Virus record (IMG/VR): IMGVR_UViG_3300033388_004609
Span: 1 to 64,000 of that record
Origin: a virus
Length of the DNA stretch: 64,000 nucleotides
Direction: 5' to 3' (one strand)
The notes beneath the pieces were generated by a model that saw nothing but the letters and a program-made list of their open reading frames with translations, did not search any database and was not told the DNA's origin. Within the stretch, counting starts at the first letter, position 1. The number at the start of each line of letters is the position of its first letter. This document shows positions 23,680-45,976 of the stretch, piece by piece. Both the position numbers and the translations under genes were made by a program.

Positions 23680-26600
23680 TTAAATTTTTAGTTGTTTTTT
23701 TAATTCTCTCATTTTTAACATTTTTGCAAATGGATCTGCTTTCTCCATGGCTTTATATTTAAACATATCCATTCTTGCAAAAAAACCTGGTACCTCCAAT
23801 GCTTTATGTGATTCCTCCGGATCGAAATGCATCATGTCTTCTTTAAGAAGCATCAACATTCCAAATGCGCTTACTCTGTCAAAATTACCGTCTTTATGCC
23901 AATATATAAATTCCTGTAATAATGGAATAGATCGTATTGTATGTAAATTCATTAACTCACTACTACTGCTAACTTTAGTCACCAAATGTATTAATGATAA
24001 TTCTCTCGCCCATTTATTTATTCCCTGTGTACCAGGAGATCCTTTTCCACGATTAAGTACTACTTTATCAACTACCTTATCAGCTACTACCTTTGGAGTA
24101 TCACAAAGCAAGTATGAAGAGAATGTATTATTCATATAAGTCCCCATACCCTTGCAATCATTCTCGTAATTACACTTAGCATTATAATATATTAGTAACC
24201 TGCGAACATTTTCATAATACATATTCGCTGTCAGTGGCCGACCAGTATATTCTGCAACAATTCTACCTGTCACTTTATTCATGACAAATGTTGAACCAAG
24301 TGAATCTGTTGTTGAGTCATCATGGTCATATGTATCGTTACCAGCTATATAAAGTCCATACGGCACTTCTCCATCCTCTCCTGTTACTGGATGCTCATAG
24401 ATCACTATACACCCTTCTATAAGCTTCTTATCGTTTAAAGGGAATGTTCTAATCGGTCTTGCCTCAGGATCTAGTTTCCATTCAATCTTTTCAGTCTCCG
24501 GGTTAATTACAAGTTTACCAACATACTCTGTGTCTTCGAATTTTTCAGGGTGAGTTCTTACATACGCAAGATGTTCTTTAAGATCATTAATAGGAAAGAT
24601 AGTACCACCAATACGCATACATGCTTCCTGTGGTGTCTTGGGTTCTTCTGCAATGTGTCTTATTATTGCTTCGGGATTCTTTGTTTCATTTCTTACTTTA
24701 TCCCTATCAGCCTCTATTAGTTTATCTGCAAGTTCTGTATCTGAATTACCATCCTTATCCATGGTCCCTTCAAGATTCTTTAATACAGAAGAAAAGAAAC
24801 CAGACTTCGATCCAGCAGTTGTAGTATCCCATATATTAGGAACCATATGAACATTATATCCACCACCTTCATAATAAAGTTGCTCTAACCCCATAAAGTC
24901 TTGATTTTCAGTTCCTCCAGTTTGTTTGGTTATAAAATTGTTTGAGATATATGTATTTGTGTAAGCTGTATGAAGATTATAAATATTCTGCATCCCTATA
25001 TATTCAACCTTTGTAACAGATTCGGTTCTAAAATTAGTCATTCCTTTTTTGCCAATAAAAAAATGACCTTTATCATTATCAGGATTCAATTCGAAAACAC
25101 CTTTATTAATTCTGCTTCTATCTATAGAATTAGATTCATGTATCCGTCTCAAGACTTCCACTTTTTTCTTAGACAAAAGTTTAATATTCTTTTCGAAATT
25201 CTTTACATCATTTATATTTGTAATATACAATCTATAAACATATTCTTTACCACCACTATATCCGCTAGTTCTCTTCTCTTTGATTATATTACCATGAATG
25301 CCAAACTTCGTCAACTGATAATAAACCTCCTTAAGTAAAGGTTTAATATTACTCGTCAATACTACTCGAACTGTTTTCTTTTGCTTAGTCCATGTCACAT
25401 GACCATCTGCATCAAAATAGCCTGCAAGTAAATCAGAAAGTGATTTTTTATTATATTCGTGAATATTCTTAGGGAGCCTTTTATCATCTTTTACTTGTCC
25501 GTATATACCAATATCTTTTAATACATGTGAAAAGTTCTTTATTCCTACCGAATCATGCACTCCTCCATTACTCATAAATTTTGATTTGTATATAGAGGTA
25601 TCATAATTTTTCTTAACATATTTTAATATTGAATCGTCTGCACATGACAATTGAGGAGTTGCTCCTTTTGTATAATTTCCATCACCAATTAATAATCCTA
25701 TTAATCGAGCATCTTTTATATTCTTTTTCCCAAATACAGGAACTTCATCAATCTTTAATAATTGATCTCCTGGTTTTATATTTTTTGTTAATGTAAACGA
25801 AACTCTTCTTCCTGCCTGAAATTTTCCATCCATATATTTATACCATTGAGGTCTTGTCCACATTAATGGATGATCTCCTGAACATTCTATATAATTTTCT
25901 CCTGAAGTTGTTATTCTATAACATGGCTTTTTTTCAGGAGGTTTAAACCATTTTATTTTTTCTTTATAGGACTTATAACCATCGTAACCTATAATTCCAT
26001 CCTCTTGTTGTAAATCTTCAATATTTATTAGTTTTCCATCTTTCGTCCATACTTTAGTTCCTGCACAAACACAGCCGAAGGATGCTTGCAAACCAAAAGT
26101 AAGTCTTCCTTGTTGCATACTTTTTAAGGAGATGTTCCATGCTTTTAATAAGTTAGGATTTTTTCCGCTCTCTTCATACAGTATTAATTTTCCACGCTTG
26201 CCACGTGCTTTGTTCCAATTGTTTTTTAGACTTACTCCTATTATCTCTGACTTAAATCCTTTCTCTATTTTTAATCCATTCCTCTGAATATAGTAAGAAG
26301 CTCTTCTATGCATTACACTATTATGGACCTGTCGTCTTTTTCCCCATGGAGTATGATTTTCTATATGAGTCATCATATCCCATGCCTTGGTTATTATACC
26401 ATCTTCAATAAGATAATCTTTATCATCCGCAAAACAATAACTTTTACTTCCTGGAATAAGATAATAATTACGATTACACATACCGCCACCTTTAAGACTA
26501 AATCCTCTCCCCCTGGTTTTGATTACCACTGCATGTTCACCACTCTCTTCTGCATCATTCAGATAATGAAAATATGTATAATCATTATCCCAAAAATGAG

Positions 26601-26973
26601 GAAATTGATCCTCCCTATCAGCTTGTGTCTGTTTGGTTAATTCATCAAATCCCCTTTTGTTATCATCTATTTTTTCTCTCTCTACAGCAATAGGTATTGG
26701 ACAATAATTTAGATAGAAATAAAAATAACCAGGAATCCAATCTCTTCCAATATCATATCCAAAGACTGATCTCCTGGCTTCTTCTTCCCAGAATTTATAG
26801 TACATACTATTGGGGTGAGAATTTACAGGGTAATTAGTGTATCTTCCAAACTCTTCAAAATGCAGAGCAGAAGCACGCCATTCATCGGTATTATAATGTT
26901 TAGTATTCTTATAATAACCTGATGTGATTATATCGCTTTTAGGTTGCACCGGTGATAAAATGTCACTGGTCAT
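23680..26973 (-). CDS. terL: terminase large subunit containing an intein
   Basis: KTRGRGFS Walker A, LILYEESG Walker B, YIAGNDTYD and GNFDRV nuclease motifs. Confidence 0.92.
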   Translation of the reverse strand: MTSDILSPVQPKSDIITSGYYKNTKHYNTDEWRASALHFEEFGRYTNYPVNSHPNSMYYKFWEEEARRSVFGYDIGRDWIPGYFYFYLNYCPIPIAVEREKIDDNKRGFDELTKQTQADREDQFPHFWDNDYTYFHYLNDAEESGEHAVVIKTRGRGFSLKGGGMCNRNYYLIPGSKSYCFADDKDYLIEDGIITKAWDMMTHIENHTPWGKRRQVHNSVMHRRASYYIQRNGLKIEKGFKSEIIGVSLKNNWNKARGKRGKLILYEESGKNPNLLKAWNISLKSMQQGRLTFGLQASFGCVCAGTKVWTKDGKLINIEDLQQEDGIIGYDGYKSYKEKIKWFKPPEKKPCYRITTSGENYIECSGDHPLMWTRPQWYKYMDGKFQAGRRVSFTLTKNIKPGDQLLKIDEVPVFGKKNIKDARLIGLLIGDGNYTKGATPQLSCADDSILKYVKKNYDTSIYKSKFMSNGGVHDSVGIKNFSHVLKDIGIYGQVKDDKRLPKNIHEYNKKSLSDLLAGYFDADGHVTWTKQKKTVRVVLTSNIKPLLKEVYYQLTKFGIHGNIIKEKRTSGYSGGKEYVYRLYITNINDVKNFEKNIKLLSKKKVEVLRRIHESNSIDRSRINKGVFELNPDNDKGHFFIGKKGMTNFRTESVTKVEYIGMQNIYNLHTAYTNTYISNNFITKQTGGTENQDFMGLEQLYYEGGGYNVHMVPNIWDTTTAGSKSGFFSSVLKNLEGTMDKDGNSDTELADKLIEADRDKVRNETKNPEAIIRHIAEEPKTPQEACMRIGGTIFPINDLKEHLAYVRTHPEKFEDTEYVGKLVINPETEKIEWKLDPEARPIRTFPLNDKKLIEGCIVIYEHPVTGEDGEVPYGLYIAGNDTYDHDDSTTDSLGSTFVMNKVTGRIVAEYTGRPLTANMYYENVRRLLIYYNAKCNYENDCKGMGTYMNNTFSSYLLCDTPKVVADKVVDKVVLNRGKGSPGTQGINKWARELSLIHLVTKVSSSSELMNLHTIRSIPLLQEFIYWHKDGNFDRVSAFGMLMLLKEDMMHFDPEESHKALEVPGFFARMDMFKYKAMEKADPFAKMLKMRELKKQLKI
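24922..26073 (-). mobile_element. intein with LAGLIDADG homing endonuclease (384 aa)
   Basis: Junctions FG/CVCAGT...NNFITKQ/TGG; block B CSGDHP; LIGLLIGDG and LAGYFDADG motifs. Confidence 0.9.
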
Positions 26974-42121: not shown

Positions 42122-42152
42122 ATTGCTTGTATCAAATATTTTATTATATTTG
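42122..42152 (+). promoter_or_regulatory. promoter of leader peptide/tRNA operon
   Basis: ATTG-N19-TATATTTG. Confidence 0.7.
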
Positions 42153-42159
42153 TACCGAT

Positions 42160-42240
42160 ATGAAAAAGAAACTACATACTCTCGTTTTATTACAGCCCCA
42201 TTTGCCACGTGGCCATAATAAGGAGAGGTATATGTTTTAA
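42160..42240 (+). CDS. attenuator leader peptide MKKKLHTLVLLQPHLPRGHNKERYMF (26 aa)
   Basis: ATG just after the promoter; 12 of codons 5-19 are Leu/His/Gln/Pro/Arg; overlaps the antiterminator arm. Confidence 0.75.
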   Translation: MKKKLHTLVLLQPHLPRGHNKERYMF

Positions 42241-42266: not shown

Positions 42267-42299
42267 GTGCCTCTGAATATTCAGGGGCATTTTTATTTT
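42267..42299 (+). terminator. attenuator terminator hairpin
   Basis: GTGCCTCTGA-ATAT-TCAGGGGCAT followed by TTTTATTTT, immediately before tRNA-Pro. Confidence 0.8.
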
Positions 42300-42300
42300 A

Positions 42301-42373
42301 CGGGAGTCTGGTGTAATCAGGTAGCATACCTGCCTTGGAAGCAGGAGGCGCAGTTCAAATCTGAGGTTCCCGA
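42301..42373 (+). tRNA. tRNA-Pro(UGG)
   Basis: Cloverleaf; anticodon arm CCTGC-CTTGGAA-GCAGG; C1-G72, A73. Confidence 0.85.
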
Positions 42374-42375
42374 CT

Positions 42376-42449
42376 GTGACTGATCCCGAAGTGGTCGAGG
42401 GGCCGGATTGTGATTCCGGTATCAGTGGGTTCGAGTCCCACCAGTCACC
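42376..42449 (+). tRNA. tRNA-His(GUG)
   Basis: GTGACTG/CAGTCAC acceptor; CCGGA-TTGTGAT-TCCGG; C73. Confidence 0.9.
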
Positions 42450-42453
42450 CATT

Positions 42454-42525
42454 GGCCTTGTGGTGTAATGAATAGCATGTAACGCTTCGAATGTTATGGT
42501 TCTGGTTTGAATCCCGCCAAGGCCT
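42454..42525 (+). tRNA. tRNA-Arg(UCG)
   Basis: GGCCTTG/CAAGGCC acceptor; TAACG-CTTCGAA-TGTTA; imperfect T-arm (TTTGAAT). Confidence 0.7.
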
Positions 42526-42532
42526 CTCTATT

Positions 42533-42606
42533 GTCCCTTTAGCCCAATTGGTAGAGGCATCAGGTTTAAGCCCTGTGTAGTCTGGGTTCGAATCCCAGAA
42601 GGGACA
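42533..42606 (+). tRNA. tRNA-Leu(UAA), short variable loop
   Basis: GTCCCTT/AAGGGAC acceptor; CAGG-TTTAAGC-CCTG; A73. Confidence 0.8.
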
Positions 42607-42612
42607 CACAAT

Positions 42613-42686
42613 GCTAAAGTGTGCTAACTGGCAAAGCAGCGATACTTAGAATATCGTGGATGTGAGTTCGAATCTCACCTTTAGCA
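42613..42686 (+). tRNA. tRNA-Leu(UAG), short variable loop
   Basis: GCTAAAG/CTTTAGC acceptor; CGATA-CTTAGAA-TATCG; A73. Confidence 0.85.
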
Positions 42687-42692
42687 CAAAAT

Positions 42693-42764
42693 TGTCCTTT
42701 AGTATAATGGTCAGTACACAAGGCTTTGATCCTTGAAATCCCGGTTCGAGTCCGGGAAGGACAT
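42693..42764 (+). tRNA. tRNA-Gln(UUG)
   Basis: TGTCCTT/AAGGACA acceptor (U1-A72); CAAGG-CTTTGAT-CCTTG. Confidence 0.9.
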
Positions 42765-42801
42765 CTATACCTATCTTAAATATAATATATAAACACTATT
42801 T

Positions 42802-42830
42802 TAACAAACTCTCCGAGTGTAAAGTTGTTA
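42802..42830. promoter_or_regulatory. 29-bp palindromic site, copy 5
   Basis: TAACAAAC-TCTCCGAGTGTAA-AGTTGTTA. Confidence 0.55.
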
Positions 42831-42833
42831 ATC

Positions 42834-42990
42834 ACCCACTATAAAAACACTCCCCACCCATAAAATTACATTAACGTCTCGGCCAAACAAACACCCACCC
42901 ACACAAATACCCCCACCCTTTACTGTAACCCCCGTAAACACCCCCACCCCCTTTACATTATACCCCCCAATACCCCCATACCTCATCCAA
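42834..42990. repeat. C-rich low-complexity tract (G-runs on minus strand)
   Basis: More than ten C3-C6 runs in ~150 bp. Confidence 0.85.
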
Positions 42991-43203
42991 CTAAAAATTC
43001 TGTGAGGGTACAGGATGTCGGGTACCACCTCATATGAACCCCTACACGGTTCGGCTCCGCCGGGATGGGCGGGTGGCAAATCGTTTTGGCTTGCAATTAT
43101 ATACTCATATTTAGAAAAAACTTTTATTGTGTACACTATATAATATATGGTGTGCAATTTTTATAATTACTTACTATTATTTATTAATTAAATTTAATTT
43201 GTT

Positions 43204-45632: not shown

Positions 45633-45934
45633 GGGGCTGACAGGTTTTGATTTATTGTAGTAAGTAATTAATGCAAGCAGTGGTAAAACCCGGGAATCAC
45701 TTTAAACAACTCGGGGAATAAACAAAAGGCAATACCATAAGTACGCCTGTTGCAAATGAGCTTAAGTTAGCTGCATAGCAACCGGGAATGTTAAGATGCC
45801 TGGGAACAAAAAGAATTAACAGCTTTTTTGTTTTATTTTTTTCATAATTTTAGTTTAGGTGAATACTCATAAAGCTTGTAAACATTAGTTAAATACACAA
45901 TGAAAACAAAAGGGTTCGATTCCCTTCGGCTCCA
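45633..45934 (+). ncRNA. ssrA: tmRNA
   Basis: 5' GGGGCTG pairs with 3' CGGCTCC-A with G3:U Ala identity pair; T-arm GGGTTCGATTCCC; tag ORF 45728-45778 reads GNTISTPVANELKLAA*. Confidence 0.9.
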
Positions 45935-45976
45935 CTACATAAATTACCATTTAAATAATCACTTTATTAATTTTAT

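Follow-up and report, generated by a model that had tools for sequence, protein, structure and literature searches.

Analysis of a 64,000-nucleotide stretch of viral DNA (positions 1 to 64,000 of the IMG/VR record IMGVR_UViG_3300033388_004609; hereafter the window, in whose coordinates all positions are given) revealed a compact array of six transfer RNA (tRNA) genes at 42301-42765 on the plus strand, all of which carry at nucleotide 37 the purine opposite to that found in Bacteroidota, the likely host phylum. Five of the six have G36-A37 and together cover all five boxes of the C row (the CNN codons), and the array looks as if it stands behind a ribosome-sensing attenuator, predicted from RNA folding, with a leader spelled in the codons that the array itself decodes. 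The explanation that we put forward, with somewhat less than even confidence, is that the array is a leader-gated backup operon for the whole C row and the UUR leucine codons, in which selection acted on the modification independence of tRNAs made on demand.

Six tRNA genes with opposite purines at nucleotide 37

The six genes were called concordantly by ARAGORN and by the Rfam family RF00005, in which they score 35.9-66 bits (cut-off 29), and all have the 7-nt anticodon loop and U33 of canonical tRNAs:

42301..42374, plus strand, tRNA-Pro(UGG): loop CUUGGAA, A37 at 42339, C1-G72, A73 (ARAGORN, Rfam)
42376..42450, plus strand, tRNA-His(GUG): loop UUGUGAU, A37 at 42413, encoded G-1, C73 (ARAGORN, Rfam)
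42454..42526, plus strand, tRNA-Arg(UCG): loop CUUCGAA, A37 at 42490 (ARAGORN, Rfam)
42533..42607, plus strand, tRNA-Leu(UAA): 75 nt, loop UUUAAGC, G37 at 42570, A73 (ARAGORN, Rfam)
42613..42687, plus strand, tRNA-Leu(UAG): 75 nt, loop CUUAGAA, A37 at 42650, A73 (ARAGORN, Rfam)
42693..42765, plus strand, tRNA-Gln(UUG): loop CUUUGAU, A37 at 42729 (ARAGORN, Rfam)

The original prediction, made from the letters of the window, had described five CNN-decoding tRNAs with G36-A37 that cover every CNN box and a Leu(UAA) tRNA with G37, and both programs bear this out; the array end that it gave, 42764, falls one base short of 42765. G36-A37 is found in Pro, His, Arg(UCG), Leu(UAG), and Gln, and Leu(UAA) has A36-G37 followed by C38; the four-box tRNAs of the array all have U34. 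That four of the five non-Pro tRNAs in a six-tRNA array containing Pro should be G36 decoders has a probability of about 0.005 against the 18% background of viral arrays, in a post hoc test. Both leucine tRNAs are class I molecules, with 75 nt, a 5-nt variable loop, and A73, and fall below the length of class II (approximately 83 to 87 nt); we infer their leucine identity from the anticodon only. Short leucine tRNAs, often as a tandem pair, were also seen in Mycobacterium, Gordonia, Streptomyces, and Pseudomonas phages and in the Bacteroides phage DAC17. Recent capture of the array from a host or from another phage was rejected, since the best identity of its tRNAs to any sampled tRNA was only 0.71-0.83.

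Bacteroidota genomes, which may not include the actual host of this phage, were reached by a 16S probe, and full tRNA sets were read in two of them, a Bacteroidaceae genome and a Flagellimonas genome. In both sets, every G36 tRNA has G37 (Leu GAG/UAG, Arg ACG/CCG/UCG, Pro GGG/UGG, Gln CUG/UUG, and His), and the non-G36 chromosomal tRNAs all have A37, save in one phage-like array of Flagellimonas (L401) and in one odd Arg(CCU) call with U37. Relative to this two-genome pattern, the phage array shows five G-to-A changes and one A-to-G change. More widely, the Pro(UGG)-G37 pattern was present in 179 of 201 Bacteroidota genomes, and genuine Pro-A37 was present in two, in both cases within arrays of short phage-type tRNAs; one of these two genomes additionally has two ordinary G37 tRNA-Pro genes. 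Most apparent Pro-A37 matches in Bacteroidota proved to be tRNA-Gln(UUG) with G37 and were set aside. A comparison with host isoacceptors had been proposed as the check on the A37 set, and Bacteroidota turn out not to be A37. The accompanying claim that A37 is atypical for tRNA-Pro and tRNA-Leu(UAG) is therefore sound against Bacteroidota, where the contrast is stronger than had been assumed; against phages it is not, as arrays with A37 throughout are not rare among them.

Several of the loops differ from their Bacteroidota counterparts at nucleotide 32 or 38 as well. The Bacteroidota and phage loops are, respectively, UUUGGGA and CUUGGAA for Pro; UUGUGGU and UUGUGAU for His; UUUCGGC for Arg(UCG) or UUACGGC for Arg(ACG) and CUUCGAA for the phage Arg(UCG); CUUAAAA (in tRNAs of 86-87 nt) and UUUAAGC (75 nt) for Leu(UAA); CUUAGGA (83-85 nt) and CUUAGAA (75 nt) for Leu(UAG); and UUUUGGU or CUUUGGA and CUUUGAU for Gln. 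The Leu(UAA) loop UUUAAGC is shared with DAC17 and with L401. The latter, at C1:2620285-2621249 of the Flagellimonas genome (G002), is a phage-type array of 11 short tRNAs; a second phage-type array (L340, at about 514 kb of C2 in genome G196) holds 14 short tRNAs, with A37 in His, Gln, Leu(UAG), Pro, and Arg. Both are probably prophages or islands, and they link such arrays to Bacteroidota hosts.

The substrate of TrmD, which makes N1-methylguanosine at position 37 (m1G37), is G36-G37, and that of MiaA is A36-A37-A38 in a UNN decoder. No tRNA of the array presents the TrmD substrate, as the G36 tRNAs have A37 and the G37 of Leu(UAA) follows A36; nor does the array Leu(UAA), with A36-G37-C38, present the MiaA substrate, which the Bacteroidota Leu(UAA) tRNAs have (A36-A37-A38). 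By these rules it is close to certain that the array tRNAs are not TrmD substrates and that Leu(UAA) is not a MiaA substrate; the five C-row tRNAs would escape TrmD methylation because A replaces the G37 that the enzyme requires next to G36. The array thereby has the same anticodons, the same G36, and the same row as the m1G37 class (Pro, Leu-CUN, Arg-CCG, and, in Bacteroidota, apparently all G36 tRNAs), differing in the base that is methylated.

A leader in the codons of the array and a predicted attenuator

Between a promoter of the Bacteroidota type and tRNA-Pro lie a short open reading frame and an intrinsic terminator:

42145..42152, plus strand, Bacteroidota-type -7 promoter box TAnnTTTG, 7 nt 5' of the leader ATG (read from the sequence)
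42160..42240, plus strand, 26-codon leader open reading frame with the core ..LHTLVLLQPHLPRGH..
42222..42233, plus strand, attenuator region 2, predicted to pair with the 5' half of the leader (region 1) or with the left arm of the terminator (ViennaRNA)
42267..42300, plus strand, intrinsic terminator with a 10-bp stem followed by a T-run, -15.3 kcal/mol, abutting tRNA-Pro (terminator scan)

A scan for sigma-70 consensus sequences is not applicable to this promoter type; the TAnnTTTG box also precedes the leaders of other arrays. In the leader core, the codons CTA CAT CTC TTA TTA CAG CCC CAT TTG CCA CGT CAT represent all six downstream tRNAs, and codons cognate to the array account for 12 of the 25 that follow the ATG, compared with 16-18% in the open reading frames of the phage (p of 2e-4 to 7e-4). 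The minimum-energy fold computed with ViennaRNA contains the leader hairpin (1:2) and the terminator (3:4), which the terminator scan placed at 42267-42290; with the run of C-row codons masked and the transcript ending at 42280, an antiterminator of about 10 bp (2:3) forms instead. In silico, the region thereby combines a short open reading frame rich in regulatory codons with mutually exclusive hairpins and a terminator placed 5' of the tRNAs.

On this model, ribosomes would translate the 26-codon leader, which is spelled in codons that the array decodes; a leader that is run through would leave the terminator to form directly 5' of tRNA-Pro, whereas a shortage of the cognate tRNAs would stall ribosomes on the leader codons, allow the antiterminator to form, and lead to transcription of the six tRNAs. 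The arrangement resembles trpL, hisL, leuL, pheL, and mgtL (the last with Pro codons) in its codon-enriched short open reading frame, its alternative 1:2, 2:3, and 3:4 hairpins, and its intrinsic terminator, the likeness here being one of computed structures. It differs in that tRNAs rather than biosynthetic enzymes would be regulated, in that one leader draws simultaneously on five or six codon families, and in that it is located on a phage, with a Bacteroidota-type promoter and almost no 5' untranslated region.

The same design recurs in other phages, and the link that the original prediction drew between the array and a leader peptide has held up. Leaders elsewhere are likewise spelled in the families of their own arrays: P/Q/H leaders precede Pro/His/Gln arrays, a leader with ..QRLPEH.. 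precedes a Pro, Glu, Gln, His, Arg array, and a Y/S/L leader precedes a Tyr, Ser, Leu array. The match of leaders to their own arrays exceeds that to permuted arrays (z score of 3.7, for small arrays). G36 tRNAs have A37 in 56 of 67 cases (84%) in arrays with a matching leader and in 161 of 245 (66%) otherwise (p = 0.004). One viral contig (L018) has two arrays whose leaders match them family by family: a leader with ..TFTQRPEQHTPCFT.. stands before Glu, Pro, Cys, Phe, Thr, Arg, and Gln, and one with ..QYSYSSLYL.. stands before Leu, Leu, Ser, Tyr, and a tRNA with a CUA anticodon. We found no description of leader-gated phage tRNA operons in the literature searched.

The nearest counterpart in a cultured phage is tRNA operon 1 of Cellulophaga phage phi4:1 (NC_021788, ~87.0-87.9 kb), which has a promoter, a leader with ..QRLHLQELEQP.., a terminator, and then Pro, Glu, Gln, His, Leu(UAG), Leu(UAA), and Arg(ACG). 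Unlike in the window, its C-row tRNAs have G37 in host-identical loops, and its Leu(UAA) has A37. The phi4:1 genome carries two consecutive leader-gated tRNA units at 86.9-89.7 kb (L608), of which the C-row unit is the first; the second encodes Ala, Lys, Ile, Gly, Met, Asp, Thr, Val, and Arg(UCU), preceded by a leader that starts with GTG and in which T, K, G, I, V, D, and A abound.

Nucleotide 37 in other phage arrays and the context of the window

The viral tRNA samples were gathered by sequence patterns and are hence biased. A first scan that fixed C32 overstated A37 (81 A37 to 40 G37) and was repeated with nucleotide 32 free, whereupon viral tRNA-Pro(UGG) gave 16 A37 and 82 G37 genes (about 16% A37), all 16 A37 genes lying in arrays. 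Among the neighboring tRNAs at those loci, the ratio of A37 to G37 was 16:15 for Leu(UAG), 12:9 for His, 25:11 for Gln(UUG), and 12:2 for Arg(ACG). A37 was associated with C32 in viral tRNA-Pro (odds ratio of 40, p = 3e-4), and within arrays Pro-A37 was coupled to Leu(NAG)-A37 (odds ratio of 6.2, p = 1e-4) and to Gln-A37 (odds ratio of 4.7, p = 0.0035). Leu(UUR)-G37 tracks Pro-A37 across viral arrays (9 of 49 versus 1 of 39), which fits a rule against having the same purine at both 36 and 37 better than it fits a single nuclease site. Arrays with at least four C-row families were mixed in 36 of 55 cases, all A37 in 19, and all G37 in none, in this pattern-biased sample. AT bias was rejected as a cause of A37 (GC content of 0.428 versus 0.447, p = 0.28), and the idea that A37 is a specialty of Bacteroidota phages found no support in its association with the TAnnTTTG motif (odds ratio of 1.7, not significant).

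Sets of C-row tRNAs recur in other genomes. A distant relative, the complete 85-kb crAss-like genome G212, which has terminal repeats and a portal protein 25% identical to that of the window, carries five tRNAs and no others (Pro, Gln, His, Arg(ACG), and Leu(UAG)), each with A37; in a 41-kb sequence (G211) these five recur in unchanged order, again all A37, although its tRNAs are only 58-77% identical to those of G212. Other contigs have Pro/His/Gln or Pro/Gln/Leu/His sets that are nearly all A37. Grouping by row is not unique to the C row, as within arrays the tRNAs of each of the four nucleotide-36 classes tend to lie together (z scores of 2.8-4.1), and small Pro-containing arrays are mostly mixed.

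Among cultured phages, the tRNA-Leu(UAG) of T5 (loop CUUAGAU), the tRNA-Pro of Pseudomonas Bruynoghevirus (e.g., MR299-2; CUUGGAA, identical to the Pro loop of the window), and the tRNA-Pro of Vibrio phage 172P1 (UUUGGAA) share G36-A37 with the window but occur singly, within sets that are small or mixed and do not make up a full C row, in phages of proteobacterial hosts. The corresponding host tRNAs carry m1G37. The literature searched yielded no published comment on nucleotide 37 of these three variants and no description of A37 in any phage tRNA-Pro or tRNA-Leu. Gut metagenome contigs (L570, L574, L577, and L587-L599) show a further pattern that is not host-like: their large arrays, which include a tRNA with a CUA anticodon (amber suppressor-like), have G37 in Pro, His, Leu(UAG), Leu(UAA), Phe, and even Ile(GAU) and A37 in Gln and Arg.

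The window is part of an 86-kb viral contig that belongs to the crAss-like phages (Crassvirales), as seen from its terminase, portal, and major head proteins, each of which has a PHROG match; its capsid protein shares 36-38% identity with those of Cellulophaga phage phi14:2, Bacteroides phages DAC15/17, and crAss001-like phages. The array occupies the strand-switch region, from which two arms of genes diverge. Directly 3' of it in this region, 42830-43000 on the plus strand is C-rich and nearly free of G, with many CACCC and CCCCACCC repeats, and could be an origin or a regulatory region. Three kilobases from the gated operon, at 45633-45937 on the plus strand, lies a gene for transfer-messenger RNA (tmRNA), a ribosome-rescue RNA; it scores 62.4 bits with RF00023 (cut-off 47, E value of 9e-24) and was not called by ARAGORN. 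The large terminase open reading frame (23680-26973, minus strand) encodes 1,097 amino acids. Its match to the terminase PHROG is confined to residues 685-1056, and residues 344-528 have a weak match to a DNA primase family; it may be a fusion or carry an insertion. No TrmD gene was found in the phage record, the control search detecting TrmD in Bacteroides, and no RNA-ligase repair gene was found there either.

Searches for close relatives that bear the array returned none in viral contigs with a helicase protein and none in metagenome contigs with a neighboring protein of 144 amino acids. The anticodon-arm pattern of Arg found no relative, that of Leu(UAG) found 30 metagenome loci, none above 77%, and relatives by capsid protein (78-96% identity) were fragments without tRNAs. 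Contigs of at least 80% likeness were compared from cold-seep metagenomes of three studies, and these cover the promoter, leader, terminator, and array at about 90-95% identity. They include a compensatory change in the T stem of Leu(UAA) (42585 G>A with 42595 C>T), and among the variants listed for them there is no change at nucleotide 37. Between 0.05 and 0.11 of sampled words are shared with cold-seep metagenome runs, a hint at a cold-seep habitat. No RNA run containing the array was found, and the one metatranscriptome compared gave zero cover.

Explanations for the A37 set and its significance

The A37 set may sustain translation of the phage once the host's own tRNAs fail. Loss of m1G37 leads to A-site stalling at CCN, CGG, and CUA codons (PMC8384417), tRNA-Pro with an unmodified G37 is poorly charged (PMC8643618), and m1G37 is evolutionarily conserved in all tRNA-Pro (PMC8384417). 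tRNAs made in a burst during infection would be functional at once without m1G37, and A37 would sidestep what is known to go wrong when G37 lacks its methyl group: tRNA-Pro is charged poorly, ribosomes stall with the A site affected, and +1 frameshifts occur. We give preference to modification autonomy because one rule covers both directions of the purine swap, because it fits the known costs of m1G37 loss, and because it needs no unknown enzyme. We infer that modification independence was the selected trait, that host synthetases charge the tRNAs, and that the attenuator works as drawn. A broader version, which we consider doubtful, is that the purine swap at position 37, to G36-A37 in C-row tRNAs and to A36-G37 in U-row tRNAs, is a general phage strategy that renders tRNAs made in a burst independent of TrmD and MiaA and invisible to these enzymes and to readers of their products, and that, together with attenuators arranged by codon row, it forms an on-demand rescue system.

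Several observations weigh against modification autonomy. Cellulophaga phage phi4:1 has the same promoter-leader-terminator-C-row operon with G37 loops identical to those of its host; gating of a C-row operon can therefore exist apart from A37. T4 tRNA-Pro has G37, as do Pro, Gln, and Leu(UAG) of cultured crAss-like Bacteroides phages, so that dependence on TrmD is evidently tolerated by successful phages. Host tRNAs are stable and already carry m1G37, and its loss within one infection cycle is therefore not expected. A37 could even hurt charging if prolyl-tRNA synthetase (ProRS) reads m1G37 as a positive element (PMC8643618). The host baseline may not be that of the real host, and the viral samples were drawn by pattern and are biased. 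Conservation of A37 in the lineage rests on the variants listed for the metagenome relatives, because the searches yielded no close relative whose array could be retrieved. The original prediction had the set replace the G37 class when m1G37 is lost or the class is attacked; its host contrast and its leader link have held up, while this causal claim is called into question by G37 in phi4:1 and in gut crAss-like phages and by Pro-A37 in Pseudomonas and Vibrio phages.

It is possible, although we think it unlikely, that the variants evade a nuclease or toxin: a host enzyme would read the 3' side of the anticodon loop, perhaps through a modified nucleotide 37, and deplete the C-row tRNAs; the attenuator would sense the loss, and the A37/G37 variants would escape. 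The phage tRNAs of the mycobacteriophage C1 cluster and of coliphages, altered at nuclease sites in the anticodon loop, make such evasion an established proposal (van den Berg 2023, PMC10264068), and phage tRNAs are also reported to evade a retron (PMC11555353). The likeness lies in the change beside the anticodon and in translation thought to be sustained when host tRNAs fail; the array differs in following one rule over a codon row (G36-G37 to G36-A37), with the mirror change in Leu(UAA), and in having no known cognate nuclease. The van den Berg paper is silent on position 37, m1G, and TrmD (PMC10264068). In favor of evasion, all six loops depart from the Bacteroidota pattern at nucleotide 37, a shortage-triggered attenuator fits depletion better than it fits a slow loss of methylation, A37 is enriched in leader-gated arrays, and the nearby tmRNA suggests that ribosome stalling matters during infection; the absence of an RNA ligase from the phage record is neutral. 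Evasion would, however, call for five or six separate specificities or for one modification-reading enzyme, the equally gated operon of phi4:1 has host-identical loops, and Pro-A37 occurs in phages of unrelated hosts and is unlinked to the Bacteroidota promoter motif. It also counts against evasion that we know of no nuclease directed at the G36-m1G37 class, and of none in Bacteroidota.

We assign a similarly low probability to a near-neutral lineage trait, in which A37, next to a strong G36:C pair, is about equivalent to m1G37 and fast-evolving phage tRNAs drift between the two, sometimes with a compensating C32, for no special function. Both states are common in viral tRNAs (Pro, Leu(UAG), and His, as counted above), arrays with at least four C-row families are in the majority mixed, and sister systems with G37 work in phi4:1, T4, and gut crAss-like phages. 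Moreover, the His, Gln, and Arg(ACG) tRNAs of Escherichia coli have A37. Drift does not readily account for the strong coupling within arrays and with C32, which comes without an effect of GC content, nor for the 19 all-A37 arrays set against no all-G37 array in the pattern-biased sample, or the enrichment of A37 behind leaders. In addition, Pro-A37 is essentially missing from the 201 Bacteroidota genomes outside phage-like arrays and m1G37 is universal in tRNA-Pro (PMC8384417), from which it follows that cells do not treat the two states as equal.

Finally, the tRNAs might supply codons that an AT-rich phage uses more than its host, nucleotide 37 being incidental. Over-use of UUA in the phage (30-39 versus about 20 per 1,000) matches Leu(UAA), the sole fit to codon compensation, and the U34 of the four-box tRNAs suits A-ending codons. 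This explanation is very improbable, as C-row codons are rarer in the phage than in two sampled Bacteroidota genomes (119-137 versus 164-191 per 1,000), the array includes Arg(UCG) and Leu(UAG) despite the rarity of CGA, CGG, and CUA, it lacks tRNA-Arg(UCU) although the phage prefers AGA among the Arg codons, and nucleotide 37 is left unexplained.

TrmD-made m1G37 is viewed as universal and near-essential for tRNA-Pro and tRNA-Leu(CUN), and TrmD is an antibiotic target. Natural and presumably functional A37 tRNA-Pro and tRNA-Leu genes recur in many phages, sometimes as a full C-row set; they would show decoding without m1G37 and would be ready-made tools for the study of TrmD essentiality, frameshifting, and recognition by ProRS. 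The question is directly testable, because cultured carriers of A37 (T5, Bruynoghevirus, and 172P1) and a G37 control (phi4:1) exist; phi4:1, a cultured phage with a Bacteroidota host, is also suited to the study of the attenuator. If the variants do serve counter-defense, hosts would have a means of attacking a single codon row that is yet to be discovered. A leader in the tRNAs' own codons would extend ribosome-mediated attenuation to the supply of tRNA and would imply that phages monitor decoding row by row.

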